NCBI GenBank assembly: GCA_017450945.1
Contig: JAFSSP010000007.1
Location: forward strand, 28,487-92,486
Length of the DNA stretch: 64,000 nt
Direction of reading: 5' to 3'
Origin: Clostridia bacterium
GTDB lineage: Bacteria > Bacillota > Clostridia > Oscillospirales > CAG-272
The notes beneath the pieces are model-generated. The model worked only from the letters and a program-made list of their open reading frames with translations, searched no databases and was not told the DNA's origin. The first letter of the stretch is position 1; each line of letters opens with the position of its first letter. This document shows, piece after piece, positions 35,505-50,841 of this stretch. Made by a program: the position numbers and the translations under genes.

Positions 35505-35545
35505 TGGTTTTCAATCACTGCTTTTTATTATCGTAGTTTTTTTGA

Positions 35546-35707
35546 TTATTTGCGTTTGATGTCTCTGACCTGGTAGTCGGGGTATTTTGCCATAAATCTT
35601 GCCAAAGCGATGGATTCGGTTGTGGCAAAAACGTGCGTTGTACCGTGGTTGTGATAGACAACCCACATCACTGCATTCGCTTCATGAGAAGTAAATCCGT
35701 CCGGCAT
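35546..35707 (-). CDS. small hypothetical protein (53 aa)
   Basis: GGAGG RBS 8 nt before the ATG at 35707; MPDGFTSHEANAVMWVVYHNHG...; no family recognised. Confidence 0.55.
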   Translation of the reverse strand: MPDGFTSHEANAVMWVVYHNHGTTHVFATTESIALARFMAKYPDYQVRDIKRK

Positions 35708-35759
35708 GGTATGCACCTCCTGTTGTTGATCGTGATAGGACTCGAACAGGTTGAAAAAC

Positions 35760-36212
35760 TCAATCAAAGAGTCCTGTCGTATCGTTCAATAACAGACGAA
35801 CGCCTTTCAGCTTGTAAGATGGCTTTACAGCGTCATCGGAATTGTTATACGCGGTCATAGCGAGTTGCTCGGTTTTGAAATAGTAAATATGAACGCCGTC
35901 GCCGTCGTTGTTATATGCGTACAGGTATGCCTTTACCGAGCCGCTTTCCACTTTTAATGCAGCGTCGTAACCTTCCAAATACGATGTGTATTTATAAACG
36001 ATATATCCTTTTCCTTCCAGCATGGCTTTGTCGGCTTCGGCAAGATCGGCAGCCGATTGGGCGGTGCTTGTTTTTCCGCTGTTGCCGGAATTGGTTTTGC
36101 CTGCATCATTTGAGCCAATCAACTCGGTTGCATTTTTGCTTCCGCAAGCGCACAGGCCAAACAAAAGCAGAGCGGCAAGAAGAACGGTCAGAATTCTCAT
36201 CGTGGTTTTCAT
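35760..36212 (-). CDS. hypothetical lipoprotein
   Basis: Signal peptide with lipobox LCAC-G; AGGAG RBS; sigma-A promoter TTGACA-17-TATCAT at 36253-36281. Confidence 0.8.
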   Translation of the reverse strand: MKTTMRILTVLLAALLLFGLCACGSKNATELIGSNDAGKTNSGNSGKTSTAQSAADLAEADKAMLEGKGYIVYKYTSYLEGYDAALKVESGSVKAYLYAYNNDGDGVHIYYFKTEQLAMTAYNNSDDAVKPSYKLKGVRLLLNDTTGLFD

Positions 36213-36290
36213 TTTGATTTCTCCTTAATTTATTTGATTTGGTGCTAACAATATGATAGCAGGATTTTTGGGATTTGTCAACCGTGATGC

Positions 36291-36799
36291 TTAAAAAATG
36301 ACAGGATTTGAACTCTGCAATTTTCCTGCGGCGGTGCCGTTTTTTCGACGGCTGGACGCCGTCGTTTTGCAAGTAAAAACCAAAAACGGCGTCGCATTTC
36401 GGCATGGCCTATCGGTCCAAGCAAAAAGGCAAGAGCCCATAAAGAGCTCTTGCCTTTTTGGTCGGAATGACAGGATTTGAACTCTGCGAATCCACCTGCG
36501 GTGGGAGCCGTTTTTTCGACGGCTGGACGCCGTCGCTTTCACTTCGTGAAAGACCAAAAACGCCGTCGCATCTTCGCGTGTCTGTCCTTCGGGCAACAAA
36601 AGAGCTATCGGATAAACCGACAGCTCTTTCGTTGGTCGGAATGACAGGATTTGAACTCTGCGGATCGCCTGCGGCGGTGCCGTTTTTTCGACGGCTGAAC
36701 GCCGTCGCTTTGCAAGCAAAGACAAAAACGGCTTCGCATTTTCGCGTGTCTGTCGTTCCAATCAAAAAGGCAAGAGCCCATAAAGGGCTCTTGCCTGTT
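36291..36799 (-). repeat. three tandem ~170-bp structured units downstream of tRNA-Pro, each ending in a copy of the tRNA 3' end
   Basis: + strand TGGTCGGAATGACAGGATTTGAAC at 36800 (tRNA), 36633 and 36459, truncated near 36297; period 167-174 bp. Confidence 0.92.
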
Positions 36800-36875
36800 T
36801 GGTCGGAATGACAGGATTTGAACCTGCGACATCCTGGTCCCAAACCAGGCGCGCTACCAACTGCGCTACATCCCG
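36800..36875 (-). tRNA. tRNA-Pro (TGG)
   Basis: CGGGATGTAGCGCAGTTGGTAGCGCGCCTGGTTTGGGACCAGG...GGTTCAAATCCTGTCATTCCGACCA, 76 nt. Confidence 0.97.
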
Positions 36876-36890
36876 AATTTCCACGCTCCC

Positions 36891-37007
36891 ATTATAGCAG
36901 GCAAAGAAGCAAAAGTCAACAATCAAAAAGCAGTTTTTGAAAAAAGTATTTTTCCTCGAAAGTTTTTTGAAAAAAGCTCTTGACTTTTTTCTAAAATCAT
37001 GTATAAT
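36891..37007. promoter_or_regulatory. divergent sigma-A promoters for tRNA-Pro (-) and tRNA-Leu (+)
   Basis: Minus strand TTGACT-17-TATAAT (36919-36891); plus strand TTGACT-16-TATAAT (36980-37007); A/T tracts between them. Confidence 0.8.
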
Positions 37008-37045
37008 AAACCTGTTGCGCGATGATCGCGCACAAAACCATATAC

Positions 37046-37130
37046 GCGGGAGTGGCGGAACTGGCAGACGCGCACGTTTGAGGGGCGTGTGGTTCACACC
37101 GTACGAGTTCAAGTCTCGTCTCCCGCACCA
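37046..37130 (+). tRNA. tRNA-Leu (GAG)
   Basis: GCGGGAGTGGCGGAACTGGCAGACGCGCACGTTTGAGGGGCGTG..., long variable arm, ends CCA, 85 nt. Confidence 0.97.
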
Positions 37131-37470
37131 CAAAGAGGTGAATGGACAAAAGTCCATTCACCTCTTTGTATTGCATGATAATCGAACGCGAACTCGCTCC
37201 TTTTTTGCAAGGCAAAAAAGGAACAAGTGCGGCAAGATGAAGGTATGGATTTATGCTTGATTGGCGCCGCACGCTTGAGTTACAAGTCTCGTCTCCCGCA
37301 CCACAAATAGGTGGATGGGTTTTCTCATCCGCCTATTTGTTATGTGGAACGATCCTGCTTGAACTCGCTCCTTTATGCAATGCAAAAAGGAACGCGTGCG
37401 GAAAAGATATAAGTATAGACTCTTGCATGACTTTCGCCGCACGTTTGAGTTAAAAGTCTTGTCTTTCGTT
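37131..37470 (+). repeat. two ~170-bp structured units downstream of tRNA-Leu(GAG), each ending in a copy of the tRNA 3' end
   Basis: GAGTT(A)CAAGTCTCGTCTCCCGCACCA at 37277-37303; decayed copy at about 37447-37468; each unit starts with a terminator hairpin. Confidence 0.9.
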
Positions 37471-37547
37471 TTAGAAAAAACTTCACTCTTGCTTTTCGAT
37501 TCTTTTCGTGCTATAATAAGGCAGACCGATCGAAAGGGGGTGCTTTC

Positions 37548-38375
37548 ATGCGAGAAAAGGGGAATTCGGCAGAACTGCGCGATGTTAGGCTCTTTTTGTT
37601 TGACCTTGACGGCACACTGTATCTCGGCGAGCAGTTATATCCCTACACAAAGGCATTGCTTGAAGAGATCAAGCGCCAGGGAAAGCACTACCTGTTTATG
37701 ACCAACAATTCCTCGCGCGGGGTGGACGCCTACGTCGAAAAGATGAAGCGGCTCGGTATCAAAGCAACCGCCGACGATTTTATCACCAGCGTGATGGCGA
37801 CCTCGGCCTATATTTTGAAAACCTACCCGGAAAAGCTTTTTTACGTTGCCGGGACCGAGTCTTTCAAGCAAGAGCTTCGCGCGTCCGGCGTTCGTGTGAC
37901 CGACCTTTATTCGGGCGACGTTGAGGGTGTGATTCAAGGCTTTGACACCGAACTGACTTTCCAGAAACTCGACGACGTTTCCAAACTGCTGACGCTCAAG
38001 GAGATCCCGTTCATAGCCGCCAACCCGGACTTTGTTTGCCCGACCGAATACGGTTTTGTTCCGGATTGCGGCTCGATCTGCGGAATGCTGGAGAAGGCGA
38101 CCGGAAAGAAGCCCTACTACATTGGCAAGCCGCGCCCCGAGATGGTCTATTTTGCTGTGGAGCGCATTCGGGCAAAAGACTCCAAGGTCTCTCTCCAAAA
38201 CACGCTGGTTGTGGGTGATCGGATGTACACCGACATTGCCTGCGGGATCAGCGCTGGGGCAAAAACCTGCCTTGTCCTCTCGGGTGAGACGACCGAGGAG
38301 CAAGCGTATGCGTCGGACTACAAAATTGACTATATTCTAAAGGATTGCGAGCGGATCCTTGAGGCGATCCGGTAA
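37548..38375 (+). CDS. HAD-IIA family hydrolase (NagD-like)
   Basis: FDLDGTLY, TNNSS, GKP, VGDRMYTDI. Confidence 0.92.
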   Translation: MREKGNSAELRDVRLFLFDLDGTLYLGEQLYPYTKALLEEIKRQGKHYLFMTNNSSRGVDAYVEKMKRLGIKATADDFITSVMATSAYILKTYPEKLFYVAGTESFKQELRASGVRVTDLYSGDVEGVIQGFDTELTFQKLDDVSKLLTLKEIPFIAANPDFVCPTEYGFVPDCGSICGMLEKATGKKPYYIGKPRPEMVYFAVERIRAKDSKVSLQNTLVVGDRMYTDIACGISAGAKTCLVLSGETTEEQAYASDYKIDYILKDCERILEAIR

Positions 38376-38384
38376 GGTGAAAAG

Positions 38385-38747
38385 ATGAAAGAAAAATTCA
38401 AAAACGCTTTCAAAAAAGCCATACAGTTTCTCTTGAATCCGCGTTTGCTCCTTTGCTGTGGAATCGCGTGGTTCATTACAAACGGCTGGTCGTACGTGAT
38501 GTTCGGAATCGGGACTTACTTTCAGATCGGTTGGATGATCGCAGTCGGCGGGGCATACCTGACTTTCCTTTGGTTGCCGATCTCACCCGAAAAGATTGTG
38601 ACCGTGGCGATCGCCATCGGGCTTTTGAAACTGTTGTTTCCCAAGGATGAGAAAACGCTTGCCGTTCTGAAGGAAATGTCACAAAAGGTAAAGAACACGG
38701 TCAAACGGAAGAAGAAGCAAAAGGGAAGAGGGCAGGTTGCAGAGTGA
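38385..38747 (+). CDS. hypothetical membrane protein
   Basis: ORF with hydrophobic segments (AWFITNGWSY, LWLPISPEK) and a basic tail. Confidence 0.75.
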   Translation: MKEKFKNAFKKAIQFLLNPRLLLCCGIAWFITNGWSYVMFGIGTYFQIGWMIAVGGAYLTFLWLPISPEKIVTVAIAIGLLKLLFPKDEKTLAVLKEMSQKVKNTVKRKKKQKGRGQVAE

Positions 38748-38748
38748 G

Positions 38749-38970
38749 ACGGTAGCCGGATTCGTGAGCGGAGTTTGCGGCTTTATTTCAAAGTGTTCCG
38801 GATACTCGCCTTCGGCGAGAGTGTTTCATAGATTGGGGTGGCCGGATTCGTGACCGGATTTTGCTCCGCAAGCGAAGCAAAGTGACGTTTTTTGCAAGAC
38901 AAAAAACGTCGGTCGATCCTCACCTGACCACCAAGCAAAACAGGCGACTCCCGGTGGGAGTCGCCTGTTT
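38749..38970 (-). repeat. two structured units downstream of tRNA-Gln with copies of the tRNA 3' end
   Basis: + strand TGGGGTGGCCGGATTCG at 38975 (tRNA) and 38834; decayed GGTAGCCGGATTCG at 38751; terminator at 38937-38971. Confidence 0.82.
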
Positions 38971-39045
38971 TGGCTGGGGTGGCCGGATTCGGACCGACGA
39001 ATGCCAGAGTCAAAGTCTGGTGCCTTACCGCTTGGCTACACCCCA
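38971..39045 (-). tRNA. tRNA-Gln (TTG)
   Basis: TGGGGTGTAGCCAAGCGGTAAGGCACCAGACTTTGACTCTGG...CACCCCAGCCA, 75 nt. Confidence 0.96.
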
Positions 39046-39104
39046 ATATTCACAAACAACAGTATTATAGCACAAAGCAAAATGACTGTCAATAGATTTT
39101 TGAT

Positions 39105-39137
39105 AGAAAAAGGCGTCGCCCGGCGACGCCTTTTTCT
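39105..39137 (-). terminator. intrinsic terminator of the der-obgE-rluA-DUF3810 cluster
   Basis: Palindrome AGAAAAAGGCGTCGCC-C-GGCGACGCCTTTTTCT. Confidence 0.8.
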
Positions 39138-39141
39138 GCTA

Positions 39142-40251
39142 TTATTTTGCAACGATATTTTCCGCTTTGAAGTAGGCTACCGCCAGATCCACCACAAGAT
39201 TATAACTGCGGGTTCCGGCTTTTGCGCCTTGAGATTTGAGATAGGTGTCATTGACAAAATCGTTGACGGTTGCCAAATTGCTGTTTTGGTATGGCTTGAA
39301 GAATTCCGCATAGGCAGCTTCCTCTTTTTGAACCGTTTCGGGAAGGATTCTCAAAAGCATGGAATAATACTCGGGATTGGTTTCATACATGGCGTTCATC
39401 ATATATTCCCAAAGGCTCAGCGCAGCACTATAGCGAATATAGGTGTCCTCGCTGTTCATGCATACCAGGTAGGCGACAAAATTTGCCTCGTCCTCTCTTG
39501 CGATTCCTCTTTGATGCGCCAGTTCATGGGCCATGGTAAATGGAAGCGTATAGTCGGGGAAATCGGTATTTACATTTGCTTCTCCTGTGGGAAAAGAGTA
39601 AATCCCGGTGATGTGGGAATAGGAAAGCAATTTGCTTGCAAACACAGGCTTGACTCTGGAATAATAAGTGCTTAAAAAATCATGATCCTTTGCAAAATCC
39701 TCGTATGCGGTAAGGAGCTTTTCGTTGAGTTCGTCAAAGGAATAGGGCATGATCGTGGCCCCGCTCTGTCCGGAAACCAGATCATATGAAAGATCCTTTA
39801 GTTCATCGGTCAAATACAGCGTTGAACGAAGCAGATCCACTTCTAAGACCGGTTCGCGATCCAGCTCCAGCTTTTTTTCGATCCCGCTTCCGCGGTATCC
39901 GGGCGCAAAGGTCCAGACAAAGAGGCAAAAGATGACGCAAACTCCGGAAAACAGCCGCAAAAGATAGGAGCTGAGGCGCCGGGAGCTTTTGACATAGCGG
40001 ATCGCTCCGAATACCAGAGCCGCAAACGCGACCGGAAGTGAGAGCACAAGCCATTCTCCGATCGAGAAGGGAAGAATCGAAGAGATTTTTGCCAGAACAT
40101 GACGCAAAAACTGCGCAATGCTTTGATTGAAGGCATCGGAAAACTCCGGAAAAAAGCAGAACACCAGGTACAGACCGAGTGAAAAAGCAGTTACAGCCCA
40201 GAGGATACTGCCCAAAACGAGAAAGACGGTATTTCGTTTGACTTTATTCAT
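39142..40251 (-). CDS. DUF3810 family membrane-anchored putative zinc metalloprotease
   Basis: PFSIGE, GIYSFPTGEANVN, AHELAHQRG..REDEANF. Confidence 0.88.
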   Translation of the reverse strand: MNKVKRNTVFLVLGSILWAVTAFSLGLYLVFCFFPEFSDAFNQSIAQFLRHVLAKISSILPFSIGEWLVLSLPVAFAALVFGAIRYVKSSRRLSSYLLRLFSGVCVIFCLFVWTFAPGYRGSGIEKKLELDREPVLEVDLLRSTLYLTDELKDLSYDLVSGQSGATIMPYSFDELNEKLLTAYEDFAKDHDFLSTYYSRVKPVFASKLLSYSHITGIYSFPTGEANVNTDFPDYTLPFTMAHELAHQRGIAREDEANFVAYLVCMNSEDTYIRYSAALSLWEYMMNAMYETNPEYYSMLLRILPETVQKEEAAYAEFFKPYQNSNLATVNDFVNDTYLKSQGAKAGTRSYNLVVDLAVAYFKAENIVAK

Positions 40252-41188
40252 GAAAAGTCTCCTTATAGCATGGTTCGAGTTCAAAATCATTTCCAAAACA
40301 CTTTTTTGCAAAGTTGGAAAAATCGGCAGGCGGCGGTGCCAAAACAGTCAGGCGTTCCTTGGTCGTCGGATGCGGAAAAGAAATGCGCAGAGCGTGCAGG
40401 GCATGCCGTAAAATACTTTCGCTTGGAGTTCCGTAAAGATCGTCTCCGGAAATCGGAAAGCCGTGGTGTGCAAACTGAACTCTCAGTTGATGCGTTCTGC
40501 CCGTGATCGGTCGCGCAAGGACTAAGGTGTGTCTCTCGCCCCGAAAAAGCACCCAAAACTCGGTTTTTGCAAACTCGGCGCCGGGAGCATCTTTTTCGCA
40601 GACCTCGCGCAAAATGATGCTTTTTTCGGTTCTGTGAAGATAGTCGCAAAGCGTTCCGGCATCCTCGCTCAGAACGCCGTCCAGAATGGCCAAGTATTCT
40701 TTGGAGAACTCGCCTTTTTGCAGGGATTTTGCCATTCTTCCGGCAGAGAGCCGATTCTTTGCCACCACCAAAAGACCGCTGGTATTGCGGTCGAGGCGGT
40801 TTACCGGGCGAAAGACGTAAGGAGTCCCGCATTCCCGGTAGCGGTAGGCAAGCGCGTTTGCAACCGTATCAAAATGGTGATCGCAGGAAGGGTGCGTCGG
40901 CATGTTTGCTGGCTTTGACGGCACGACGAGATCTTCGTCCTCGTATAGGATTGTAAGCGGAAGATCGACAGGGTCGATCCTCTCCTCGGCCTCTGCGTCG
41001 TCAAGCGCGATCGAGAGCCTGTCGCCCTCCTGCAGAATGGCACGGACGGTTACATGGGAGCCGTTGAGCAAAATCCCATCCTCGCGGAATTTGACCGAGC
41101 GCAAGAGCTTTTTTGACGGATGCAATTGTTCTATGAGAAAACTCTTGAGAACTTTTCCGTCGTCTTCTTTTGCAATGAGAAACTCCAT
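40244..41188 (-). CDS. RluA family pseudouridine synthase
   Basis: NRLDRNTSG, TGRTHQLRV, GDDLYG, ALHA. Confidence 0.93.
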   Translation of the reverse strand: MEFLIAKEDDGKVLKSFLIEQLHPSKKLLRSVKFREDGILLNGSHVTVRAILQEGDRLSIALDDAEAEERIDPVDLPLTILYEDEDLVVPSKPANMPTHPSCDHHFDTVANALAYRYRECGTPYVFRPVNRLDRNTSGLLVVAKNRLSAGRMAKSLQKGEFSKEYLAILDGVLSEDAGTLCDYLHRTEKSIILREVCEKDAPGAEFAKTEFWVLFRGERHTLVLARPITGRTHQLRVQFAHHGFPISGDDLYGTPSESILRHALHALRISFPHPTTKERLTVLAPPPADFSNFAKKCFGNDFELEPCYKETFHE

Positions 41189-42468
41189 TATTTGATATAA
41201 TCAAATTCAAAACCGTAGACAGAGACGGTGTCTCCGTCCTGGCAACCCTTGGATTCCAGCAGTTCAAATACGCCGCTGCGCTGCAGAACCTTTTGAAAAT
41301 AGTTGAGCGACTCGTAGTCGGTAAAATTGATCTGTCCCATGAGATTCTTGAGCCATTCGCCTTCGAGATAGAAGGTGTTGTTCTCTCGGCGTACCGTCGT
41401 TTCCTTCCCGCCGCCAACGTAGGCGTCCTCGGGATCGTATTCGCGTTCGTAAATCCTCATGGGGGGAAGATCCAAAAGGCGTTTTGCGGTGTGATCCACC
41501 AGTTCGTCAAGCCCTTCGCCGGTGATTGCAGAAACGTAGAACAGCTCCCAGCCGTTTTCTTTTACGAAGGTTTCAAAGGCAGAAAGATCGGTGTTTTCGC
41601 GATCGAGAGAGTCCACTTTATTTGCCACGATGATCTGCGGTCTTGTTGCAAGCTCGGGGCTGTAGCGTTCCAGCTCGGTGTTGATGATCTTGATATCTTC
41701 CACAGGATCTCTGCCTTCGATCGAGGCGATATCCACAATATGGAGTAGCAGACGGCAGCGGTCGACATGACGTAAGAATGCGTGACCGAGCCCCGCGCCT
41801 TCGGAGGCTCCTTCGATGAGCCCGGGAATATCCGCGGCAACAAATCCTGTCTCACCCTTGGTGCGTACCACACCGAGGTTGGGAGAAAGGGTAGTAAAGT
41901 GATAGTCCGCAATTTTCGGCTTTGCGGCACTGATGCGGGAAAGGATCGAGGATTTTCCGACGCTCGGGTAACCGATGAGTCCTACGTCGGCAAGCATTTT
42001 GAGTTCGAGAGTCAGTTCTCTCGATTCTCCCTCGGTGCCGTTCTTTGCAAAAAGCGGAACCTGGCGCGTCGGCGTTGCAAAATGCTTATTTCCAAAGCCG
42101 CCTCTGCCGCCTTTGCAACAGAGATAGTCTGCTCCGTCGTCCTCCGACATATCGTGCAGGACTTTGCCGCTCTCAGCATCTTTGATCAGGGTTCCTGGCG
42201 GGACCAAGATCACAAGATCCTCGGCGGTAGCACCATGAAACTTGGAGCCTTTGCCGTCACCGCCGCGCGCGGCGATAAACTTGTGTTTGTAGCGGAAGGC
42301 AAGCAGGGTATTGCAACCGGGATCAACTCGGAAGACAATGTTACCGCCATGCCCTCCGTCGCCGCCGTCCGGGCCGCCAGCCGCAACGTATTTTTCACGC
42401 CGAAAAGAGACGGCACCATTGCCGCCGTCCCCGGCTTTGACAAAAATTTTGACCTGATCGACAAACAT
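41188..42468 (-). CDS. obgE: GTPase ObgE/CgtA
   Basis: MFVDQVKI, Gly-rich Obg fold, GYPSVGKS, DIPGLIEGA, NKVD. Confidence 0.98.
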   Translation of the reverse strand: MFVDQVKIFVKAGDGGNGAVSFRREKYVAAGGPDGGDGGHGGNIVFRVDPGCNTLLAFRYKHKFIAARGGDGKGSKFHGATAEDLVILVPPGTLIKDAESGKVLHDMSEDDGADYLCCKGGRGGFGNKHFATPTRQVPLFAKNGTEGESRELTLELKMLADVGLIGYPSVGKSSILSRISAAKPKIADYHFTTLSPNLGVVRTKGETGFVAADIPGLIEGASEGAGLGHAFLRHVDRCRLLLHIVDIASIEGRDPVEDIKIINTELERYSPELATRPQIIVANKVDSLDRENTDLSAFETFVKENGWELFYVSAITGEGLDELVDHTAKRLLDLPPMRIYEREYDPEDAYVGGGKETTVRRENNTFYLEGEWLKNLMGQINFTDYESLNYFQKVLQRSGVFELLESKGCQDGDTVSVYGFEFDYIK

Positions 42469-42492
42469 AAAAAGTTCCTTCCAAAAGAAGAA

Positions 42493-43827
42493 TTAGTCTG
42501 CGTCATCGCCCTTCATACGGATGATGAGTTTGATCGGCGTTCCCGAGAACCCGAAGGTCTCGCGCAGGCAGTTTTCGATATAGCGTTGATAGGAGAAGTG
42601 GAACAGTTCCACATTGTTGCAAAAGATCACAAAGGTCGGAGGTGCGACGCCGATCTGCGTCATATAATAGATTTTCAGCCTGCGGCCTTTGTCTGTGGGC
42701 GGCTGTACCCTTATCATCGCGTCGCCCAGCACGTCGTTGAGCATTCCGGTTGTCACGCGCATGACCGACTGACCGTAGACATAAAGGATTCTCTCATACA
42801 GCGTTTCTACCCTCTGACCGGTCTTTGCCGAGACGTACAGGATCGGCGCATAGGTCATATAGGCAAGCTCTGTGCGGATCTTGTTGTTGAACTCGTTAAC
42901 CGTGGAATTGTCCTTTTCGATCCGATCCCATTTGTTGACGACGATGATGGTTGCTTTGCCTGCTTCGTGCGCAATCCCGGCAATTTTGGTATCCTGGTCG
43001 GTGATGCCGGTCGTCGCGTCGATCATAAGCAGGCAGACGTTGGCGCGCTCGACCGCCATGTGCGCTCGAAGCACGCTGAAGTGTTCGATCTTATCTTCGA
43101 TCTTGGACTGGCGGCGAATCCCCGCCGTGTCGATAAAGGTGAATTTTCCATACGCATTTTCGACCTGGGTATCCACCGCGTCGCGGGTGGTCCCGGCGAT
43201 CTCGGATACGATGAGACGGTTTTCACAGAGCAGGCGATTGATGATCGAGGATTTTCCGGCATTCGGTTTTCCGATGACGGCGATTTTAATGCTGTCATCC
43301 TCTTCCTCTTCACCCACTTCTTGCTCGTTGAGCGCTTCCACACAGGCGTCGAGCAGATCACCGGTCCCGTTGCCGTGCGAGCTTGAGATGCTGATCGGAT
43401 CTTCGCGGAACCCGAGCTCGTAAAACTCGTAGAACGCCATGGGAGGATCGCCTACGTTATCGCACTTGTTGACGCAAAGAATGACCGGTTTCCCGCTTTT
43501 CTTCAGCGTTGTGGCGATTTCACGGTCGTCGGCGGTCAAGCCTGCGCGCACGTCGCAGAGAAAGACGATCACGTTTGCGCTCTCGATGGCAAGTTCGGCT
43601 TGCGCACGCATCTGAGAGAGGATGATATCGTTTGTTTTCGGTTCAATACCGCCGGTATCGACCAGGATCATTTTGCGACCGCGCCATTCGCATTCGCCGT
43701 AGATCCTGTCGCGCGTCACGCCGGGCGTATCCTCAACGATCGAGCGCCGCTCGCCGATGAGCTTATTGAAGAGGGTGCTTTTTCCCACGTTGGGGCGCCC
43801 TACAATGGCAATGATTGGTTTTGACAT
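42493..43827 (-). CDS. der: ribosome biogenesis GTPase Der
   Basis: Two GTPase domains (GRPNVGKS, GKPNAGKS) and a KH-like tail. Confidence 0.98.
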   Translation of the reverse strand: MSKPIIAIVGRPNVGKSTLFNKLIGERRSIVEDTPGVTRDRIYGECEWRGRKMILVDTGGIEPKTNDIILSQMRAQAELAIESANVIVFLCDVRAGLTADDREIATTLKKSGKPVILCVNKCDNVGDPPMAFYEFYELGFREDPISISSSHGNGTGDLLDACVEALNEQEVGEEEEDDSIKIAVIGKPNAGKSSIINRLLCENRLIVSEIAGTTRDAVDTQVENAYGKFTFIDTAGIRRQSKIEDKIEHFSVLRAHMAVERANVCLLMIDATTGITDQDTKIAGIAHEAGKATIIVVNKWDRIEKDNSTVNEFNNKIRTELAYMTYAPILYVSAKTGQRVETLYERILYVYGQSVMRVTTGMLNDVLGDAMIRVQPPTDKGRRLKIYYMTQIGVAPPTFVIFCNNVELFHFSYQRYIENCLRETFGFSGTPIKLIIRMKGDDAD

Positions 43828-43841
43828 GGCAAATCCTTTCG

Positions 43842-45161
43842 TTATTCGTTGATTCCGAGTACCGTTCGCACAAATCCGTCGCCCGTGCAGGGGCAGGTGC
43901 GCAAATGTACTCCAAGCGCCGCTTCGAGGTCGGCGGGAGTCTTGTCATCAAGAAAGATCTCTTCGTCGGCTTTGAGCATCACAGCGGGGTAGAGGAGTTC
44001 TTCTCCGAGATCTTTTCCTTTGAGCTGCTCGATCACGTCCTGCCCGGTGATCAGCCCCGCTACCGTGACGTTCTCTCCAAAGAAGTTGTTTTTGATCTCA
44101 TAGACTGCTACTTTCAAGAGCGGGAACGCATCGGTCAATTCTTTTGCCGCTTTGCGGATCGTTCCCGCGGCGGCGACTCCCGTGATCACGGAGACTGAGC
44201 GAGGCTTTTTCAGGGCAAATCCTTCCTCTTGCAGAGCTTCTGTTTCAAATGCAAAATCGGTTTCAAAAGAGGTGATCATGCCAACGCCGTTTTCAATCTG
44301 TGAATAGTCCTCGTAGAACTCGTCATTCGGAAGCGGCACGCCGGCTTTGAGATAAAACTCGTCCGAACAATAAAACAGTCGCGTGCCGTATTGTTTCCTG
44401 CAATAGTTGCCGAAGGCGTTGACCTCGTCTAACACCGCTTTGCAGTCCTCTTTGGTAAAGGGCTCCAGCGGGTAGAGGCTGTCGCGAAATTTGGTTAGCC
44501 CCACCGGGACGACCGAGCAGGATTTGAGCGCAGGATAAAGCGAGAGAAGGTCGTGCATGGTGCGGTCGAGCTCGTTTCCATCATTGATCCCTTTGCAAAG
44601 CACGATCTGGGTGCAGAGCGAGATCCCGGCGTCGGCAAGACGACGGAGATAGGAAAGCACCTCGCCCGCGCGCTTGTTTTTCATCATTTGCACGCGAAGC
44701 TCGGGATTGGTCGTGTGAACCGAAATATTGACCGGCGAGAGGTGCATCTCGATGATGCGGTCGATGTCCTCGTCATGAAGGTTGGTCAGCGTGACGTAGT
44801 TGCCATGCAAAAAGGACAGGCGATCGTCGTCATCCTTAAAGTACAGGCTTTTGCGCAGTCCTTTTGGAAGCTGGTCAATGAAGCAGAAGACGCATTTGTT
44901 GGCGCAGGAATGCTTTTTGTCCATGAGCGCGCTGGAAAACTCAAGACCGATGTCAAAGAGGTTTTCCTGCTTGGAGAAACGGATGGTATGCTCGATCCCA
45001 TCCCTGCACACGACAAGCTCAATGTTTCGGTCGGTCATGTAAAACCGGTAGTCGAGAACGTCTCTTATCGGGTGACCGTTGATGGAAAGGAGGCGATCGT
45101 CAGCTTTGAGTCCCACGGCTTCCGCAAGCGTTTTGGGACAAACTTTTTGAATGATGACCAT
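43842..45161 (-). CDS. DUF512 family radical SAM protein with N-terminal PDZ-like domain
   Basis: CANKCVFCFIDQLP, KDDDDRLSFL.GNY, QIENGVG; AAGGAGG RBS. Confidence 0.9.
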   Translation of the reverse strand: MVIIQKVCPKTLAEAVGLKADDRLLSINGHPIRDVLDYRFYMTDRNIELVVCRDGIEHTIRFSKQENLFDIGLEFSSALMDKKHSCANKCVFCFIDQLPKGLRKSLYFKDDDDRLSFLHGNYVTLTNLHDEDIDRIIEMHLSPVNISVHTTNPELRVQMMKNKRAGEVLSYLRRLADAGISLCTQIVLCKGINDGNELDRTMHDLLSLYPALKSCSVVPVGLTKFRDSLYPLEPFTKEDCKAVLDEVNAFGNYCRKQYGTRLFYCSDEFYLKAGVPLPNDEFYEDYSQIENGVGMITSFETDFAFETEALQEEGFALKKPRSVSVITGVAAAGTIRKAAKELTDAFPLLKVAVYEIKNNFFGENVTVAGLITGQDVIEQLKGKDLGEELLYPAVMLKADEEIFLDDKTPADLEAALGVHLRTCPCTGDGFVRTVLGINE

Positions 45162-45278
45162 AAGCGCATCCTCCTTCCAATCTTTATAACATATTATTTT
45201 ACCATGTAAAGCGTAAAAAGTCAATGGAAATCAAGAAAAAGGGAAGTCCTACTTGTAAAAAAGGACTTCCCGTATCTA

Positions 45279-46157
45279 TTATTTTGTCGTTTTTGCAAGG
45301 ATTTTCTCCAGTTCGCTTGTAAGAGAAACAAACAAGGAAATATCCAATTCCTCGCCGCGCACGGTCGGTGACAACCCCATCGAGGACAGGCAGGCCGTAA
45401 TCTCCGCTTTGTCAAGTTCTGGAAAGCCCGCCGAAAGGGCATTTGCAAGAATTTTTCTGCGTTCGCCGAACGCGGCCTTGATCGTGCGGAAGAGCAGATC
45501 GGCGTTTGTATCCCGATAGGGGGATTCCCGAAAGAGTTTGATCCGCACCACCGCCGAATCGACCTTTGGTGGCGGCAGAAATTTTCCGGCAGGGACCAAA
45601 AAGAGACGTTCGGCAACTCCGTAATAGGCAAGTGCGACCGTGATCGCGCCGTAGTCCTTGCTTTTTGCCTTGGCAGAGAGGCGGTCGGCCACCTCTTTTT
45701 GCACCATGACGGTGATTGAATCAAAGGGAAGTCCGCTCTCAAGCAGCTTCATAAGGATCGGCGTTGTGATATAGTAGGGAAGATTGGCGCAAACCGAAAC
45801 CGGGCCTCGCTCGAAATCCGCTTTGAGAAGCGTGGGAAGGTCGGCTTTCATCACGTCTTCGTTGATCACTTGGACGTTTGAACAGTCGGCAAGCGTCTCT
45901 GAAAGGATCGGAATGAGTCCGCGGTCAATTTCCAGGGCGACGACCTTTTCATAGCGATATGCCAGCTCGCGCGTCAGCGTCCCGACGCCGGGGCCGATCT
46001 CAAGAATTGTGCGCTCGTGCGTCTCTCCCGCGGCGTCGGCAATGTCTTCAACGACTGTGGAATCCATCAAAAAGTTCTGCCCGAACTCTTTGCGAAAAGT
46101 TACGCCATAGGCGCTCATGAGGTCGCGCACCTGCTTTGGATTGTAAAGATTGATCAT
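45279..46157 (-). CDS. rsmA: 16S rRNA dimethyladenosine transferase
   Basis: GQNFL, EIGPG, ANLPYYITTP, PPPKVDSAVV. Confidence 0.97.
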   Translation of the reverse strand: MINLYNPKQVRDLMSAYGVTFRKEFGQNFLMDSTVVEDIADAAGETHERTILEIGPGVGTLTRELAYRYEKVVALEIDRGLIPILSETLADCSNVQVINEDVMKADLPTLLKADFERGPVSVCANLPYYITTPILMKLLESGLPFDSITVMVQKEVADRLSAKAKSKDYGAITVALAYYGVAERLFLVPAGKFLPPPKVDSAVVRIKLFRESPYRDTNADLLFRTIKAAFGERRKILANALSAGFPELDKAEITACLSSMGLSPTVRGEELDISLFVSLTSELEKILAKTTK

Positions 46158-46223
46158 CTGTTTTTCCTCGTCTTGGAGATACTGAAAAAATCATACCATA
46201 AAAAGGCCGATCTGTCAAGAACG

Positions 46224-46292
46224 ACCACTTATGCCCGAAAATCTACCACTTGGGCAAAATCTATTTACAAATCCGGCGTTCGGGATTATAAT
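46224..46292 (+). promoter_or_regulatory. LytTR operator direct repeat plus sigma-A promoter
   Basis: ACCACTTAT-N12-ACCACTTGG (46224-46253), then TTTACA-17-TATAAT (46264-46292). Confidence 0.75.
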
Positions 46293-46318
46293 GAAATCAT
46301 CAAAAGGGAGGTGATTCT

Positions 46319-46774
46319 GTGAAGCTTCGGATCGAGATCGACCCGGACGGACCGGAAGAAGTTGTCATCAAGGCAAAAGCAATCACAGAGAGCCTGCAAA
46401 ACCTGCAAACCAAGCTGGAGCGCACGCTGAACGCCTCTGGAGAGATCGCCTTAAAGAAAGGCAACGAAGAGTTTTATCTGCCTTACCGCGAGATCCTCTA
46501 TTTTGAGACCGAAGGGAAGTCGGTAACGGCTTACACCAAGGACGAGGCCTTTCAAACCGCTCTGCATCTGAACGAGCTTTCCTTGCTTTTGCCAAAATCC
46601 TTTACGCGGGCTTCCAAGAGCTGTATTGTCAACACGGCAAAAATCTGCTCGATTGTGCGCAGCCCGACCGGGGTCAGCGTCGCCCGCTTTTCGGGAAGCG
46701 ACAGCATCCTCTATATTTCCAGAAAGTATTATCACGTCGTGCGTGAGATCATTGAAGAAACGAGGTTAAACTAA
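46319..46774 (+). CDS. stand-alone LytTR family transcriptional regulator
   Basis: MKLRIEID..EEVVI, ILYFET, FTRASKSCIVN, ISRKYY. Confidence 0.9.
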   Translation: MKLRIEIDPDGPEEVVIKAKAITESLQNLQTKLERTLNASGEIALKKGNEEFYLPYREILYFETEGKSVTAYTKDEAFQTALHLNELSLLLPKSFTRASKSCIVNTAKICSIVRSPTGVSVARFSGSDSILYISRKYYHVVREIIEETRLN

Positions 46775-46775
46775 C

Positions 46776-47495
46776 ATGGCAAACTGCAAAAACAAATCCT
46801 GCGATAAAAAACGCTATCAAGCGATCTTTTGGGGCCTTGTCCTCATCCTTGCCGCCGCGGTCCTCATTCTGGACGGCGTTGGCGTAGCCCTTGCTCCCGG
46901 CTTTACCCCATGGAGAATCATCGGCAGAGTATTGCTCCTTGCCTGGGTGGTCTACGAGATCGTTCGTCTGAAATTTGCCGATATCTTTTTCCCACTTGCT
47001 CTCTTGTTCTTACTTTTCAAAGATCCGCTTGCCGATCTTCTTAGCTGGAACAAAGAGAAGATTCCGAAAGCATGGATCATCCTGCTTGCGGCGATCCTCA
47101 TCAGCATCGGTCTTCACATCATTTTTGACCGCAAGAAAACCGTTTATGTCAACGGCGTAAAGGTGGAAAACGAAAAAATCGGCGTTGGAAAGATGGGGAA
47201 AGAGACCTTTTATGCCGACGCGGCCGATCTCTCCGGATACACCATCAAGGATCATCTCGGCGCGGTGGAGCTGTTTGTCACCAACAAAGAATCCTATGTG
47301 GGAAGCGGCGTTATCACGATTTGCGATAATCTTGGTCTTGTGACCCTGCATTTGCCGGGAGATTGGAACGTCTTGACCCAGTGCAGAGACAACCTCGGTA
47401 CCATCTCGGTTCCCGAACATGAAGCGACGGGCGAGAAGAGCATTACCCTTGACGTTTACGATAATCTTGGGAAGGTTGAAGTGAAGTTTGAGTAA
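46776..47495 (+). CDS. LiaF-like membrane protein, probable inhibitor partner of the LytTR regulator
   Basis: IFWGLVLIL, about 4 TMs, C-terminal beta-repeat domain; begins 1 nt after the LytTR stop. Confidence 0.72.
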   Translation: MANCKNKSCDKKRYQAIFWGLVLILAAAVLILDGVGVALAPGFTPWRIIGRVLLLAWVVYEIVRLKFADIFFPLALLFLLFKDPLADLLSWNKEKIPKAWIILLAAILISIGLHIIFDRKKTVYVNGVKVENEKIGVGKMGKETFYADAADLSGYTIKDHLGAVELFVTNKESYVGSGVITICDNLGLVTLHLPGDWNVLTQCRDNLGTISVPEHEATGEKSITLDVYDNLGKVEVKFE

Positions 47496-47496
47496 A

Positions 47497-47697
47497 AGTT
47501 AGATAGGACTTGAACTCTGCACAAGTGCGCTTTTCAATCTGCAAAAACTTTATAGCTATTTAGCGCACGAGACGTTTTTCTCGACGGCTGAACACCGTCG
47601 TTTTGCAAGCAAAAACGAAAAACGTCGGTGCGATTCTGCGTATCCATCAGAAGACTCAGAAAAAGTCGGGAGCCCCCAAGGGACTCCCGACTTTTTC
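47497..47697 (-). repeat. single ~200-bp structured unit downstream of tRNA-Leu(TAG)
   Basis: Terminator at 47658-47698; module 47571-47626 nearly identical to the tRNA-Pro units; partial tRNA 3' copy GATAGGACTTGAAC(T)CTGCACA at 47502-47523. Confidence 0.85.
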
Positions 47698-47782
47698 TGG
47701 TGCTCCTGACAGGACTTGAACCTGCACACCTTGCGGTATTGGATCCTAAATCCAACGTGTCTGCCAATTCCACCACAGGAGC
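47698..47782 (-). tRNA. tRNA-Leu (TAG)
   Basis: GCTCCTGTGGTGGAATTGGCAGACACGTTGGATTTAGGATCCAA...CAGGAGCACCA, 85 nt. Confidence 0.97.
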
Positions 47783-47910
47783 GTATTTCTTTTGCCATTA
47801 TAGCGATTTTTTCCACATCTGTCAAGAGCGAATTTTTTGTCAATCTATTTACAAATGCGGAAAATAATGTTATAATATCAAAAAGTGTACTTTTTGAAAG
47901 GACGGACGAC

Positions 47911-49680
47911 ATGAAAAAGAACCTCAAAACGCTGGTGGAACGTACAAACGCGGAACGCCCGCAGTGCCTTGTGGACATGAACGAGATCGATCTCATCGAA
48001 GCGTCCGGCATGGTTGCAGACCTGCGCCATAAAAAGAGCGCGCATCTGGCCGCACTCTGGAAGCTCGATCAGAGAGAGACGGTCCTTATCCCAATGGGCG
48101 GTTCCGACCTCGAAGGCTTTTCACAGCTGACTTTCTGGATCTTTTGCGAAAGAGCAGTCGGCTCTGTGATCCGCATGCTGTTTGACACCACACCCGAGGG
48201 CAAAGGCGAGGCCGGATATGTTGCCGACATCCCGCTGACCAAAAAAGGATGGAACCACGTCTCTCTTGCCATGCTACAACTGCCGTCCACAGGAGACGCC
48301 AGAAGCTGGAACTATGTTTCCAACATTCGCCTGACGCGCGTCAAAGGTAGAAAACTCGAGGGAGCCGCACTCTATCTCGACAGTTTCTTCCTTTGGGAAA
48401 ACACCTCTCCTGCGGCCTATGAACTGATTCCGGATTTGCACCGCGCCATCGTTTTCTCGGAGCGCGGAGCCTTCTCGCTCGTTCGCGGAAAAAGGATTCC
48501 CAATGCGCCTTTCGGTGGCGATCACTCGCCCGAAATCAATCCAAAAACCGGGGAATACTGGGTGCCGCTCTCTCCGATCGTGGCAGGATTTGTCCGCACG
48601 TCCGAGGCGGATTCCAAGCGGAAATCGCTTGCCTTTACCTATCGCAATCACTCCTACGTTTTCCTTGCCGGGACTCCGGCAGCCCGCGTGGACGGCGCGG
48701 TGAAACCGCTGAAATTTGCGCCTGCAGAGCAGGGCGGGGGACTATATGTTCCGATCTCCTTTGCGGCAGAATTTTTCGGCAGGAAATTCATCCTCGAAGA
48801 GGGCGGGCTCCTGGTACTTTCCAACCGCAAAACCTGGTTCTTAAAATCGGGGGAAGCCCTTCGCAGAGAGATCCTGGCGGCAACAACCTTCCCGAGCGTC
48901 AACTGCGAGGAGATCATCGAACAGCTTCGCACCAAGTTCTTCTCTCCCGGAAAAACGAGACTCCTGTTCTCCAAGGAAGAGGTTGGACGCCTGCGCAAAT
49001 CGCTCAAAGCAGATGAAAAACTGCGCGAGGCTGTCTCTGCTTTGGAGCTCGATGCGGCCAACACAAAAGAGATTCCTTCCAACCGCCTGCTTGCGCTCTC
49101 GCTCTCCTATCTTGCCACCGGCAAAAAGAAGCTGCCCGAAGCCATCAAGGTGCAGTTTGGAAACGTCTCGCTCAATATTGACAATGATCTTGCAAAATTC
49201 GGGCATTCTTCCTACGCGATTGCCATGGCCTATGATGCCTCCAAGGGTGTGCTGACCGAGGCCGAAAAAGCGGTCATGGAGCGCAAGCTCATTCGTTCCT
49301 GCCTGCGTCCCGGGCTTTCCTACTTTAACGGAAAACGTGCGACCGCGTCGCTCGACAGCCTTGGTGCTGCGGCATTGGCCTGTGGTATGACGGCTTGTGC
49401 GCTGGTCATGGCGGATACCTATCCCGAGACCGCGAAAAAGCTCTTGGAAAAGAGCCTGGAGCATCTCAAAGCCTGCTTCCTTGCTTCCAAGCCGGACAAA
49501 GAGGGAAGACTCGACCTTCTTCTCGGAACGCGTGCGCTTGACGTTGCACTGGAGACCACCTACGGTTGCGCGGCGCTTCCCGGCGTCAAGGAAGATTATG
49601 CGGCACTCTTCAAAGATGCAAGCGAGAATCCCGCAGAATCTTTTGTAAAGCTTTGCGCCCGTCTTTTCCCAAGCGAATAA
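47911..49680 (+). CDS. hypothetical multidomain protein (CBM-like, amine-oxidase stalk-like and helical lyase-like domains)
   Basis: DLEGFSQLTFWI...KGWNHVSL...LYLDSF; ARVDG...APAEQGGGLYVPISFAAEFFG; AIAMAYD...LTEAEK. Confidence 0.6.
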   Translation: MKKNLKTLVERTNAERPQCLVDMNEIDLIEASGMVADLRHKKSAHLAALWKLDQRETVLIPMGGSDLEGFSQLTFWIFCERAVGSVIRMLFDTTPEGKGEAGYVADIPLTKKGWNHVSLAMLQLPSTGDARSWNYVSNIRLTRVKGRKLEGAALYLDSFFLWENTSPAAYELIPDLHRAIVFSERGAFSLVRGKRIPNAPFGGDHSPEINPKTGEYWVPLSPIVAGFVRTSEADSKRKSLAFTYRNHSYVFLAGTPAARVDGAVKPLKFAPAEQGGGLYVPISFAAEFFGRKFILEEGGLLVLSNRKTWFLKSGEALRREILAATTFPSVNCEEIIEQLRTKFFSPGKTRLLFSKEEVGRLRKSLKADEKLREAVSALELDAANTKEIPSNRLLALSLSYLATGKKKLPEAIKVQFGNVSLNIDNDLAKFGHSSYAIAMAYDASKGVLTEAEKAVMERKLIRSCLRPGLSYFNGKRATASLDSLGAAALACGMTACALVMADTYPETAKKLLEKSLEHLKACFLASKPDKEGRLDLLLGTRALDVALETTYGCAALPGVKEDYAALFKDASENPAESFVKLCARLFPSE

Positions 49681-49684
49681 AAGC

Positions 49685-49714
49685 AAAAGCGGAGGAATTT
49701 TCCTCCGCTTTTTT
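49685..49714. terminator. bidirectional intrinsic terminator
   Basis: AAAAGCGGAGGA-ATTT-TCCTCCGCTTTT. Confidence 0.82.
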
Positions 49715-50717: not shown

Positions 50718-50841
50718 TCGATCCCTCCTTCCTTGCAATCATTATACACCAAGTCTTACGTTTTGGGAAGATTTTTTTGAAAAAATCCTTGCAAAAGACA
50801 GCGTGATTCGCTATAATAAAGAGCGAAAGGAGCGTGATGAA

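Follow-up and report, generated by a model that had tools for sequence, protein, structure and literature searches.

Repeated folded units behind the tRNA genes of a clostridial genome and their possible integration at tRNA 3′ ends

Units behind the four tRNA genes

The window analysed here, a stretch of 64,000 nucleotides from the draft genome of a gut Clostridia bacterium (contig JAFSSP010000007.1), contains exactly four tRNA genes according to ARAGORN, namely Pro(tgg), Leu(gag), Gln(ttg) and Leu(tag). Units of one type lie behind all four, at the positions originally given for them from the sequence: non-coding repeats of about 170 bases (range 141–203 nt) in which the tRNA's own 3′ end is repeated around a conserved folded core. 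The orientation of the units always follows that of the tRNA.

The longest series belongs to tRNAPro(tgg) (36800..36875, minus strand; 71 bits with the Rfam tRNA model), which anchors an array of three units. Tandem Repeats Finder describes it as 3.1 copies with a period of 174 between positions 36297 and 36829, and the 3′ end of the tRNA recurs as exact 24-nt copies 143 and 317 nt downstream. Unit 1 (36633..36799, minus strand) comprises a terminator, an imperfect inverted copy, a three-way junction (36663–36741) and a direct copy identical to the tRNA 3′ end at 24/24 positions. Unit 2 (36459..36632, minus strand) has a terminator that differs from that of unit 1, a three-way junction (36490–36573) and again a 24/24 direct copy, while the remainder of these two units is identical at 117/150 positions. 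In unit 3 (36285..36458, minus strand), the three-way junction (36320–36399) is accompanied by a direct copy truncated after ...CCTGTCAT.

The tRNALeu(gag) gene (37046..37130, plus strand) anchors two units whose direct repeats are spaced by 169–173 nt. The first (37131..37303, plus strand) consists of a terminator, a T-run/A-run hairpin with a TTGCAA apex, a second hairpin and a direct copy with two mismatches and a 1-nt insertion in the T-loop; in the second (37304..37475, plus strand) the direct copy is decayed, and outside it the two units are identical at 107/149 positions. Behind tRNAGln(ttg) (38971..39045, minus strand) lies a 141-nt unit (38830..38970, minus strand) made of a terminator, a gapped inverted copy, a simple T-run/A-run hairpin and an exact 17-nt direct copy. 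It is followed by a short second unit (38745..38829, minus strand), which is only an 86-nt partial unit and fits the layout as loosely as had been stated. Finally, tRNALeu(tag) (47698..47782, minus strand) is followed by a single unit (47495..47697, minus strand) with a terminator, a three-way junction (47555–47635; 75.6 bits with the covariance model made here) and the decayed direct copy GCAGAGTTCAAGTCCTATC.

In every array of the window, the most decayed direct copy is the most distal one, in line with the original prediction. The claim of locus-specific arms around shared inner modules also stands, in the form of a family with shared structured cores: the three-way junction is common to the three Pro units and the Leu(tag) unit, and the Leu(gag) and Gln units have only the T-run/A-run hairpin with its TTGCAA apex in common. 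The hairpin part and the core diverge at unequal rates within the same array (45/60 versus 130/137 identities).

The genome is metagenome-assembled and consists of 31 contigs, with several repeat copies located at contig ends, which could raise the suspicion of an assembly artefact. That explanation is next to impossible: separate public contigs span every Pro unit, junctions included, with 0–1 differences (the best of these may come from the source sample), and the same layout occurs in many separately assembled genomes.

Folding of the units and the comparison with RtT repeats

The core is a three-way junction of about 80 nt in which 96.7% of the cells are paired. The covariance model that was built, as the original prediction had called for, reveals strong covariation, with compensatory changes at 18 of the 20 core pairs and observed values reached by none of 500 shuffles; these changes were counted on a model-fitted alignment, which leans towards structure. 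Wobbles favour the tRNA-sense strand (32 G·T pairs versus 9 A·C mismatches). When whole units are folded, the closing stem is formed by the inverted and direct copies (z = −3.4 to −3.7 in three of the four units). A search of Rfam, proposed as a possible refutation, matched no family to the core or the units.

After each CCA stands a terminator-like hairpin, 16 terminator-like sites being found against 4.7 expected, and no promoter-like site was detected inside the units. The inverted copy is the weakest part of the reported architecture. Within the window it is marginal when alignments are compared with shuffles (p = 0.035 for Pro, 0.14 for Leu(tag), 0.42 for Leu(gag) and 0.97 for Gln without gaps), while elsewhere in the genome it can be perfect, as in the 20-nt inverted copy at the Trp locus and the 33-bp perfect palindrome arm at the Arg(ccg) locus. 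The inverted copy also spans the CCA and the trailer, which makes it a DNA palindrome and not a mimic of the acceptor stem. Six of the ten longest palindromes of the genome overlap a tRNA 3′ end, some of them (Val-cac, Pro-cgg) with no core behind.

The closest known counterpart in layout is the RtT repeat of the E. coli tyrT and tyrV genes (RF00391). There too, tandem units of about 178 nt lie behind a tRNA, each ends with the 3′ part of the tRNA from the T-loop (AATCC...CCA), and an inverted partial copy pairs with the direct copy in a closing helix around a branched interior. Like RtT, the units studied here end in a direct repeat of the tRNA's 3′ part, which forms a helix with the inverted copy. 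The tandem repeats of E. coli tyrT had originally been cited as a precedent for the direct repeat alone; the direct repeat is indeed shared, but the restriction is too narrow, since the Rfam structure of RtT is closed by an inverted:direct helix of the 3′ part of tRNATyr, and the architecture therefore has a named analogue. On score, membership of the RtT RNA family fails: RF00391, with a gathering threshold of 45 bits, gives no match at E ≤ 1 in positions 35000–49000 of the window, and none at E ≤ 0.1 at ten further loci with units, whereas the E. coli positive control gives four matches of 133–137 bits. RtT differs further in having no sequence or model similarity to these units, in serving one tRNA species instead of a dozen or more, and in lacking a terminator between the tRNA and the units. 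The inverted copy can here be perfect over 20 nt including the CCA, unlike in RtT, and the core is also a dispersed repeat, which that of RtT is not.

This likeness brings in a rather unlikely but serious rival explanation, according to which the units are RtT-like structured RNAs, transcribed with or after the tRNA, acting at the RNA level and spread mainly by duplication. They would be cut out through their tRNA-like 3′ end, the inverted and direct copies would form the closing helix, and their roles might lie in tRNA processing, as decoys or in the stress response. The layout, with its copy starting in the T-loop and a curated RtT structure closed in the same manner, is consistent with this proposal, as are the fold of whole units, the covariation with its strand-biased wobbles, the perfectly kept internal direct copies, the intact terminator in every unit and the constant orientation. 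It is opposed by the strong terminator that separates the tRNA from each unit with no promoter-like site inside, by the palindromic extent of the inverted copy and by the failure of the units on the RtT covariance model.

Distribution, dispersed copies and empty sites

Units at other tRNAs and in related genomes were expected and were found. In the genome studied, they occur at about 15 of 37 tRNAs. Of 78 genomes of the genus, 35 contain the core, compared with 2 of 150 sampled elsewhere in the order, and copy number varies among the genomes of the genus. Presence in only 35 of the 78, at variable copy number, speaks against a function at the RNA level. The duplicated tRNA stretch begins in the anticodon loop at the Met locus and in the T-loop at all others. 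At seven tRNAs (Arg-acg, Arg-ccg, Ser-cga, Gln-ctg, Ser-gga-like, Trp and Ala) the copy carries the pseudo-T-loop GGTTC-A-GAATCC, and this common 1-nt insertion speaks for a single origin of that right end. The make-up of the units is variable: the Ser(gct) unit has a type-C frame without the junction, and the core is optional inside larger repeats. In a cargo version, a segment of about 880 nt with 32–36% GC and an ORF of 167 amino acids lies between tRNAGln(ctg) and the direct copy, which sits behind the pseudo-T-loop. At one locus, the core is plainly inserted into the T-arm of a second tRNAVal copy.

The core is also found in dispersed repeats of about 180–200 nt away from tRNAs, a further point against an RNA-level role. 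The boundaries of these forms are sharp. Five aligned copies in one genome (G041), with pairwise identities of 81–98% (four of them mostly 92–97%) and unrelated flanks, show asymmetric ends with no terminal inverted repeat, target-site duplication or duplicated flank, which sets them apart from MITEs. In a second genome (G022), at least 14 copies are 85–92% identical to a reference copy. Judged by these identities, the copies would represent recent spread of the core in genomes other than the source, and they are counted in favour of a mobile nature.

Orthologous sites without units were sought, as the original prediction had advised, and were found in two filled/empty pairs. In the first, one genome (G074) has tRNAPro, a 168-nt unit and then the terminator and flank that directly adjoin tRNAPro in the other (G019); the second pair is G015 versus G001. 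The direct copy is absent at five of the seven tRNAPro loci first examined in relatives. These pairs show that a unit consists of about 168 nt of foreign DNA which related species lack at the corresponding position. As in an integrated element, a duplicated tRNA segment, from the T-loop to the CCA, bounds the insertion. The unit brings its own terminator, so that the tRNA stays intact, and the former tRNA 3′ end is displaced downstream behind a crippled T-loop. The existence of unoccupied sites again speaks against an RNA-level explanation.

The mode of array growth may differ from what had been foreseen. Repeated, polarised insertion at the tRNA-proximal end had been proposed, and the distal copies are indeed the most decayed, but the Pro units are 79–83% alike within the genome versus 66–74% to the Pro units of three other species, and unit 1 is closest to unit 3. 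Being mutually closest, they point to local amplification or conversion and not to serial import; integron-like polarised growth is not supported by these identities.

Possible routes of integration

It is well established that tRNA genes are classic landing sites for mobile DNA, among it tyrosine-integrase islands with their att repeats, tandem islands and cis-mobilisable elements (CIME). As in these systems, a direct repeat of the tRNA 3′ segment that starts in the T-loop or anticodon loop bounds foreign DNA, the incoming DNA restores the tRNA, and arrays form at one tRNA. The units differ in being non-coding and only about 170 nt long, in containing no integrase, the only such gene in the genome being Xer-like, and in having an inverted copy and a covarying junction, both of which ordinary islands lack.

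An explanation with no dedicated mobility takes the direct copies as what remains of larger islands that decayed after integration, the inverted copies as terminator palindromes extended by template switching, and the cores as REP-like repeats that invaded safe intergenic spots. Ordinary islands do use the same tRNA sites in the genus, one of 6.3 kb with an integrase using the same 24-nt repeat from T-loop to CCA, and the palindromes found without a core, the optional core, the junction-less Ser(gct) unit and the unequal divergence of hairpin and core would all suit it. We nevertheless consider it unlikely in view of the consistent unit length (141–203 nt), the same pseudo-T-loop insertion at seven different tRNAs, and the clean 168-nt insertion that carries no leftover island sequence. 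The units resemble REP/BIME and MITE-like or palindrome-associated repeats in being short, folded, multi-copy, intergenic and located beside terminators, with a mosaic modular make-up and dispersed forms that are sharp-edged without terminal inverted repeats or target-site duplications; tRNA-linked units carry arms copied from the adjoining tRNA, and REPs do not.

The best explanation, advanced tentatively at somewhat below even chances, is that the units belong to a genus-specific family of short DNA cassettes, non-coding, non-autonomous and extensively folded, that were integrated at the T-loop/3′ end of tRNA genes and moved by an enzyme acting in trans. Besides the filled/empty pairs and the dispersed copies, it draws on the start of the duplication, which the 6.3-kb island shares, on the cargo version, the common right end, the patchy multi-copy distribution, the conserved fold and the core inserted at tRNAVal. 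Joining would be carried out by a site-specific recombinase, most likely a tyrosine integrase, acting on the near-universal T-loop sequence, after which arrays would grow mostly through local amplification between the 20–24-nt copies. The core, folding on the tRNA-sense strand, may be the part recognised by the mobilising machinery or in a function at the RNA level, and in sister species it would also have multiplied into scattered MITE-like repeats.

Several observations sit uneasily with such cassettes. A recombinase model explains neither the inverted copy nor how a single core can occur with arms matching a dozen or more tRNAs, the perfect internal direct copies (24/24) could equally mean selection at the RNA level, the Pro units are closest to each other, and the cognate enzyme was not found. 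A search for a co-occurring integrase or HUH gene had been suggested; the genome, 84% complete so that absence is not proven, yielded a single PF00589 match, the Xer-like gene, and no reverse transcriptase or Y1 HUH transposase. Five other high-copy genomes contained no Y1, IS110 or reverse transcriptase genes. With Y1 transposases in none of the six genomes searched (the control search matched 6 of 14 reference genomes) and no RAYT transposase found, the units lack the enzyme expected of REP/RAYT or IS200/IS605-derived repeats. Phage and viral collections yielded no carrier of the units.

Integration through single-stranded hairpins is known from integron attC cassettes and from CTX phage. 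The likeness lies in conserved structure with non-conserved sequence, in strand-specific folding and in imperfect long palindromes that alternate with cassette content. The IntI of an integron cassette array was not found: against a cut-off of 265 for the integron-integrase model, the sole tyrosine recombinase of the genome reaches 94.7 bits. Unlike integrons, the units have no attI or Pc and show no support for proximal growth, and the T-loop GTTCRAA does not fit the integron core GTTRRRY. By analogy with these systems, the units might be the integrated form of single-stranded DNA circles of about 170 nt folded into a dumbbell, a distinctly unlikely proposal. The copy of the tRNA 3′ end would pair with the inverted copy, the terminator hairpin capping one end and the three-way junction the other; the stem would mimic the T-loop/acceptor segment of a tRNA gene in its double-stranded form, and a recombinase, either of the host or acting in trans, would swap it with the gene, as for CTX phage and attC. 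If true, this would be a structure-guided system targeting many different tRNAs; it would explain the inverted copy, the conservation of structure and not sequence, and the wobble bias of one strand, and would hint at how the RtT repeats of E. coli arose.

We know of hardly any description of the smallest elements that land at tRNA genes. The units bring together an abundant structured element, strongly covarying and so far without annotation, and a clear mark of insertion for which there is no known enzyme. They also connect the enterobacterial RtT repeats with the folded repeats dispersed in gut Clostridia, both of which have long lacked an explanation. Whether mobile or acting as RNA, they could be annotated with the present covariance model in rumen and gut genomes, whose assemblies they interrupt at tRNA loci. 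If the units move, a recombinase that reads the universal T-loop would be implied; if they act as RNA, they would constitute a new family of multi-copy RNAs associated with the 3′ ends of tRNAs.

Units behind the tRNA genes

Each of the four tRNA genes in the window is followed by units of the kind described in the original prediction, and these extend far beyond the window. Read in the sense of the tRNA, a terminator-like hairpin abuts the CCA end and is followed by an inverted copy of the tRNA 3′ end, whose degree of decay varies among units, then by a folded core and a direct copy running from the T-loop to CCA. The tRNA-Pro(tgg) array (36297-36829) comprises 3.1 copies with a 174-nt period according to Tandem Repeats Finder (TRF), and the tRNA 3′ end recurs exactly, over 24 nt, at distances of 143 and 317 nt downstream. 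tRNA-Leu(gag) is followed by two units spaced 169-173 nt apart; tRNA-Gln(ttg) has one good and one short unit, and tRNA-Leu(tag) a single unit. An assembly artefact is not indicated, as every Pro unit, junctions included, is spanned by contigs from public runs with zero or one differences, although the run with the best coverage may itself come from the source sample. Among contigs of four DNA runs, one low-depth contig, from another study, connects 37205 directly with 37383 and so retains a single Leu-gag unit; this is a hint only, since at the similarity setting used such joins often stem from other organisms.

In the source genome (1.47 Mb, 31 contigs, 84% complete), 37 tRNAs were scored for inverted and direct copies against shuffled controls, and copies were found beyond the tRNAs of the window, as anticipated. 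A strong inverted copy lies just past the terminator at seven of them (Tyr, His, Ser-gct, Val-cac, Arg-ccg, Gly-ccc and Trp), and a strong direct copy occurs at 11, two of which are merely neighbouring tRNAs. Perfect inverted copies reach 20 nt at Trp and form a 33-bp perfect palindrome arm at Arg-ccg; six of the 10 longest palindromes genome-wide overlap a tRNA 3′ end. At tRNA-Met, the duplication begins in the anticodon loop, not in the T-loop. The possibility that the inverted copy derives from the 5′ half of the same tRNA was rejected, because the copy is an exact complement at positions where the tRNA has wobbles or mismatches and also includes TGG and the trailer.

The folded core and its distribution

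Eleven cores from six tRNAs and three genomes align as a three-way junction, with an outer T-run/A-run stem, a hairpin with a GCTTGC apex and a hairpin with a GTYCAG loop. The covariance model built from this alignment detects 14 core copies in the source genome: eight behind six tRNAs (at 56-84 nt for first units, and at 227 and 401 nt for Pro units 2 and 3), one in the tRNA-Gln(ctg) array, and five without an adjacent called tRNA, several of these at contig ends. Across 45 distinct matches, 96.7% of cells are paired and both sides change in 18 of the 20 pairs, in an alignment that was fitted to the model and is hence tilted towards the structure; compensatory changes are already evident in the MAFFT alignment. 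The observed values are matched by none of 500 shuffles, and pairing in slid controls is 42-61%. G.T wobbles outnumber A.C mismatches (32 versus 9), and the folding strand is therefore the tRNA-sense strand, be it as RNA or single-stranded DNA. In the predicted fold of the whole unit, the inverted and direct copies form the closing stem. Other core types also occur, a second type being common to His and Gly-ccc and a third found at Ser-gct, while Leu-gag and Gln have a simple hairpin only. On contig C1 of the source genome (25814-25970), two bare three-way junctions stand in tandem with an 80-nt period, devoid of tRNA-derived arms or a nearby tRNA.

The architecture had not been recognised as that of a named family, but its layout recalls the RtT repeats (RF00391) of E. 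coli. The tyrT/tyrV locus contains four RtT units by Rfam, each ending in the last 19 nt of tRNA-Tyr, beginning in the T-loop. The closing helix of the Rfam consensus (GgGaaGGAU with AUCCuuCcC) consists of inverted and direct copies of the tRNA 3′ part, so that the layout of the units has a named analogue. The present units nevertheless fall outside the RtT family: they fail its model, a terminator stands between tRNA and unit, many tRNA species carry them and the core is also a dispersed repeat. As expected, the unit loci match no Rfam family, permissive thresholds yielding tRNAs, sub-threshold microRNA-like hairpin matches and nothing else, and a search of literature listings found no account of such units. 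For the tyrT-rttR region, one preprint describes coverage raised under stress and no evidence of circles (10.1101/2024.07.17.603846).

Occurrence in relatives is borne out by the covariance-model search, the core being present in 35 of the 78 genomes of the genus (12 of the 24 high-quality ones) and in 2 of the 150 genomes sampled elsewhere in the order. By title, the core-bearing records are rumen and gut Clostridia assemblies. A called tRNA lies no more than 1.5 kb away at 15 of the 30 best core-match loci, and a further four have a tRNA 3′ end cut at a contig edge. In other genomes, the junction is also found in dispersed elements remote from tRNAs. Genome G041 contains five elements of about 200 nt (pairwise identity 81-98%, four of them mostly 92-97%) with unrelated flanks and asymmetric ends, and their five-copy alignment has neither terminal inverted repeats (TIR) nor a target-site duplication (TSD). 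In genome G022, at least 14 copies of a junction element of about 180 nt are 85-92% identical to the reference copy L177; no tRNA is found within 500 nt of any of these 14.

Scanning of genome contigs with an 18-base pattern returned chiefly chance matches in unrelated phyla; of five Clostridia-like records tested with the model, three are true (L070, L090 and L115). The metagenome scan returned 15 stretches, three of them genuine by covariance model. Viral contigs gave no match with a scan pattern that recovers 15 of the 181 loci analysed, and the sole match in a phage collection was tRNA-Pro itself. A second abundant palindrome family, GGGG(A/G)..AAAACTTTTTGCAAAAAGTTTT..CCCC (source-genome contigs C23, C6 and C18; loci L163-L167), adjoins terminators and dispersed repeats and shares a TTGCAA centre with the unit hairpins.

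Filled and empty sites and the growth of arrays

Comparison of orthologous tRNA sites provides the empty sites that the original prediction called for. In G074, a unit of 168 nt, closed by the direct copy, separates tRNA-Pro from a terminator and flank that in G019 stand immediately behind tRNA-Pro. A second filled/empty pair is formed by G015 and G001, with the old terminator partly lost. At filled sites, the new terminator of the unit abuts the tRNA and the old one remains behind the distal copy. The inserted DNA is unlike the empty site, and is thus foreign and not a local duplication. No direct copy was present at five of the seven tRNA-Pro loci first examined in relatives.

In the case of tRNA-Gln(ctg) of the source genome, the direct copy lies about 880 nt downstream, and a low-GC segment of about 880 nt (32-36% GC; contig C21, L144 354-857, + strand) stands in the place of the unit. 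It contains an ORF of 167 aa, whose only match is weak and transglutaminase-like (E=0.005, below cut-off), and ends in a unit hairpin and the pseudo-T-loop. This altered T-loop, GGTTC-A-GAATCC, has one extra A relative to the tRNA and recurs at seven different tRNAs, for which independent local events are hard to invoke. In one gut assembly, the 5′ two-thirds of a second tRNA-Val-like sequence passes straight into a core, which looks like plain insertion into the T-arm. tRNA-Leu(gag) of G041 bears an ordinary 6.3-kb integrase island with the same T-loop-to-CCA repeat and without folded modules.

A large serine recombinase gene (544-aa open frame) lies right behind tRNA-Ser(gga) on source-genome contig C26 (29264-31000); contig C9 ends in a core with Ser-gga-like arms, which is possibly the opposite side of this insertion. 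In G023 (contig C5, L021), a 2727-bp segmental duplication (3157-3495 and 5884-6222) includes a whole Arg-acg unit and flank together with two paralogous genes, one of them DUF6273; no recombinase is present inside it. In L007 (G011), a degenerate second tRNA-Pro, its anticodon region replaced by other sequence, lies about 100 nt upstream of tRNA-Pro(tgg). In L003 and L004, a module like the tRNA-Met unit of the source genome is found upstream of tRNA-Pro(tgg) and ends in a small hairpin of T-loop-like sequence (CAAATCC..GGATTTG).

The three Pro units of the source genome are 79-83% alike mutually but share only 66-74% with the lone Pro unit in each of G074, G067 and G023, unit 1 being closest to unit 3. 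This suggests local growth or homogenisation of arrays, which speaks against the proposed polarised growth by repeated tRNA-proximal insertion. The internal Pro direct copies are identical to the tRNA (24/24), whereas the rest of units 1 and 2 agree at 117 of 150 positions; the copies are thus maintained by selection or conversion. Between units of the G023 Arg-ccg array, the terminator and inverted-copy part is identical at 45 of 60 positions and the rest at 130 of 137; the two parts differ in their history. In L015 (G023), the loops of the two Arg-ccg terminator hairpins are complementary (ACAC versus GTGT) and the stems differ by compensatory changes, a pattern resembling inversion of the hairpin top. 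The CRISPR-like reading was dismissed, the 'spacers' being conserved modules.

Candidate enzymes and interpretation

The sole tyrosine recombinase detected in the source draft genome is a Xer-like gene at 49713-50738 (- strand) of the window, about 2 kb upstream of tRNA-Leu(tag), which scores 234.8 bits with the XerC model, below the equivalog cut-off. Two large serine recombinases are encoded elsewhere; reverse transcriptase and Y1 HUH transposase were not found in this 84% complete draft. Tyrosine recombinases are also present in five further genomes of the genus, selected for their high number of cores, and no Y1, IS110 or reverse-transcriptase gene was found in these drafts. The loops GCTTGC and GTTCAG might conceivably reflect IS91/rolling-circle nick sites; in the Y2 (IS91) transposase search, the search's own control matched nowhere. 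The units resemble integrase att scars, integron attC sites, CTX-type hairpin integration and REP-like repeats in some features and differ from each of them in others.

The best-supported reading, put forward tentatively, is that the units are non-autonomous cassettes integrated at the T-loop/3′ end of tRNAs by a trans-acting enzyme and then amplified locally. An RtT-like RNA function is rated less likely, as is a passive history of scars and repeat invasion. What the inverted copy is for, why the pseudo-T-loops share a 1-nt insertion and how a single core comes by arms for many different tRNAs are left unexplained. Integration of such cassettes and an RtT-like RNA function are compatible and not mutually exclusive.
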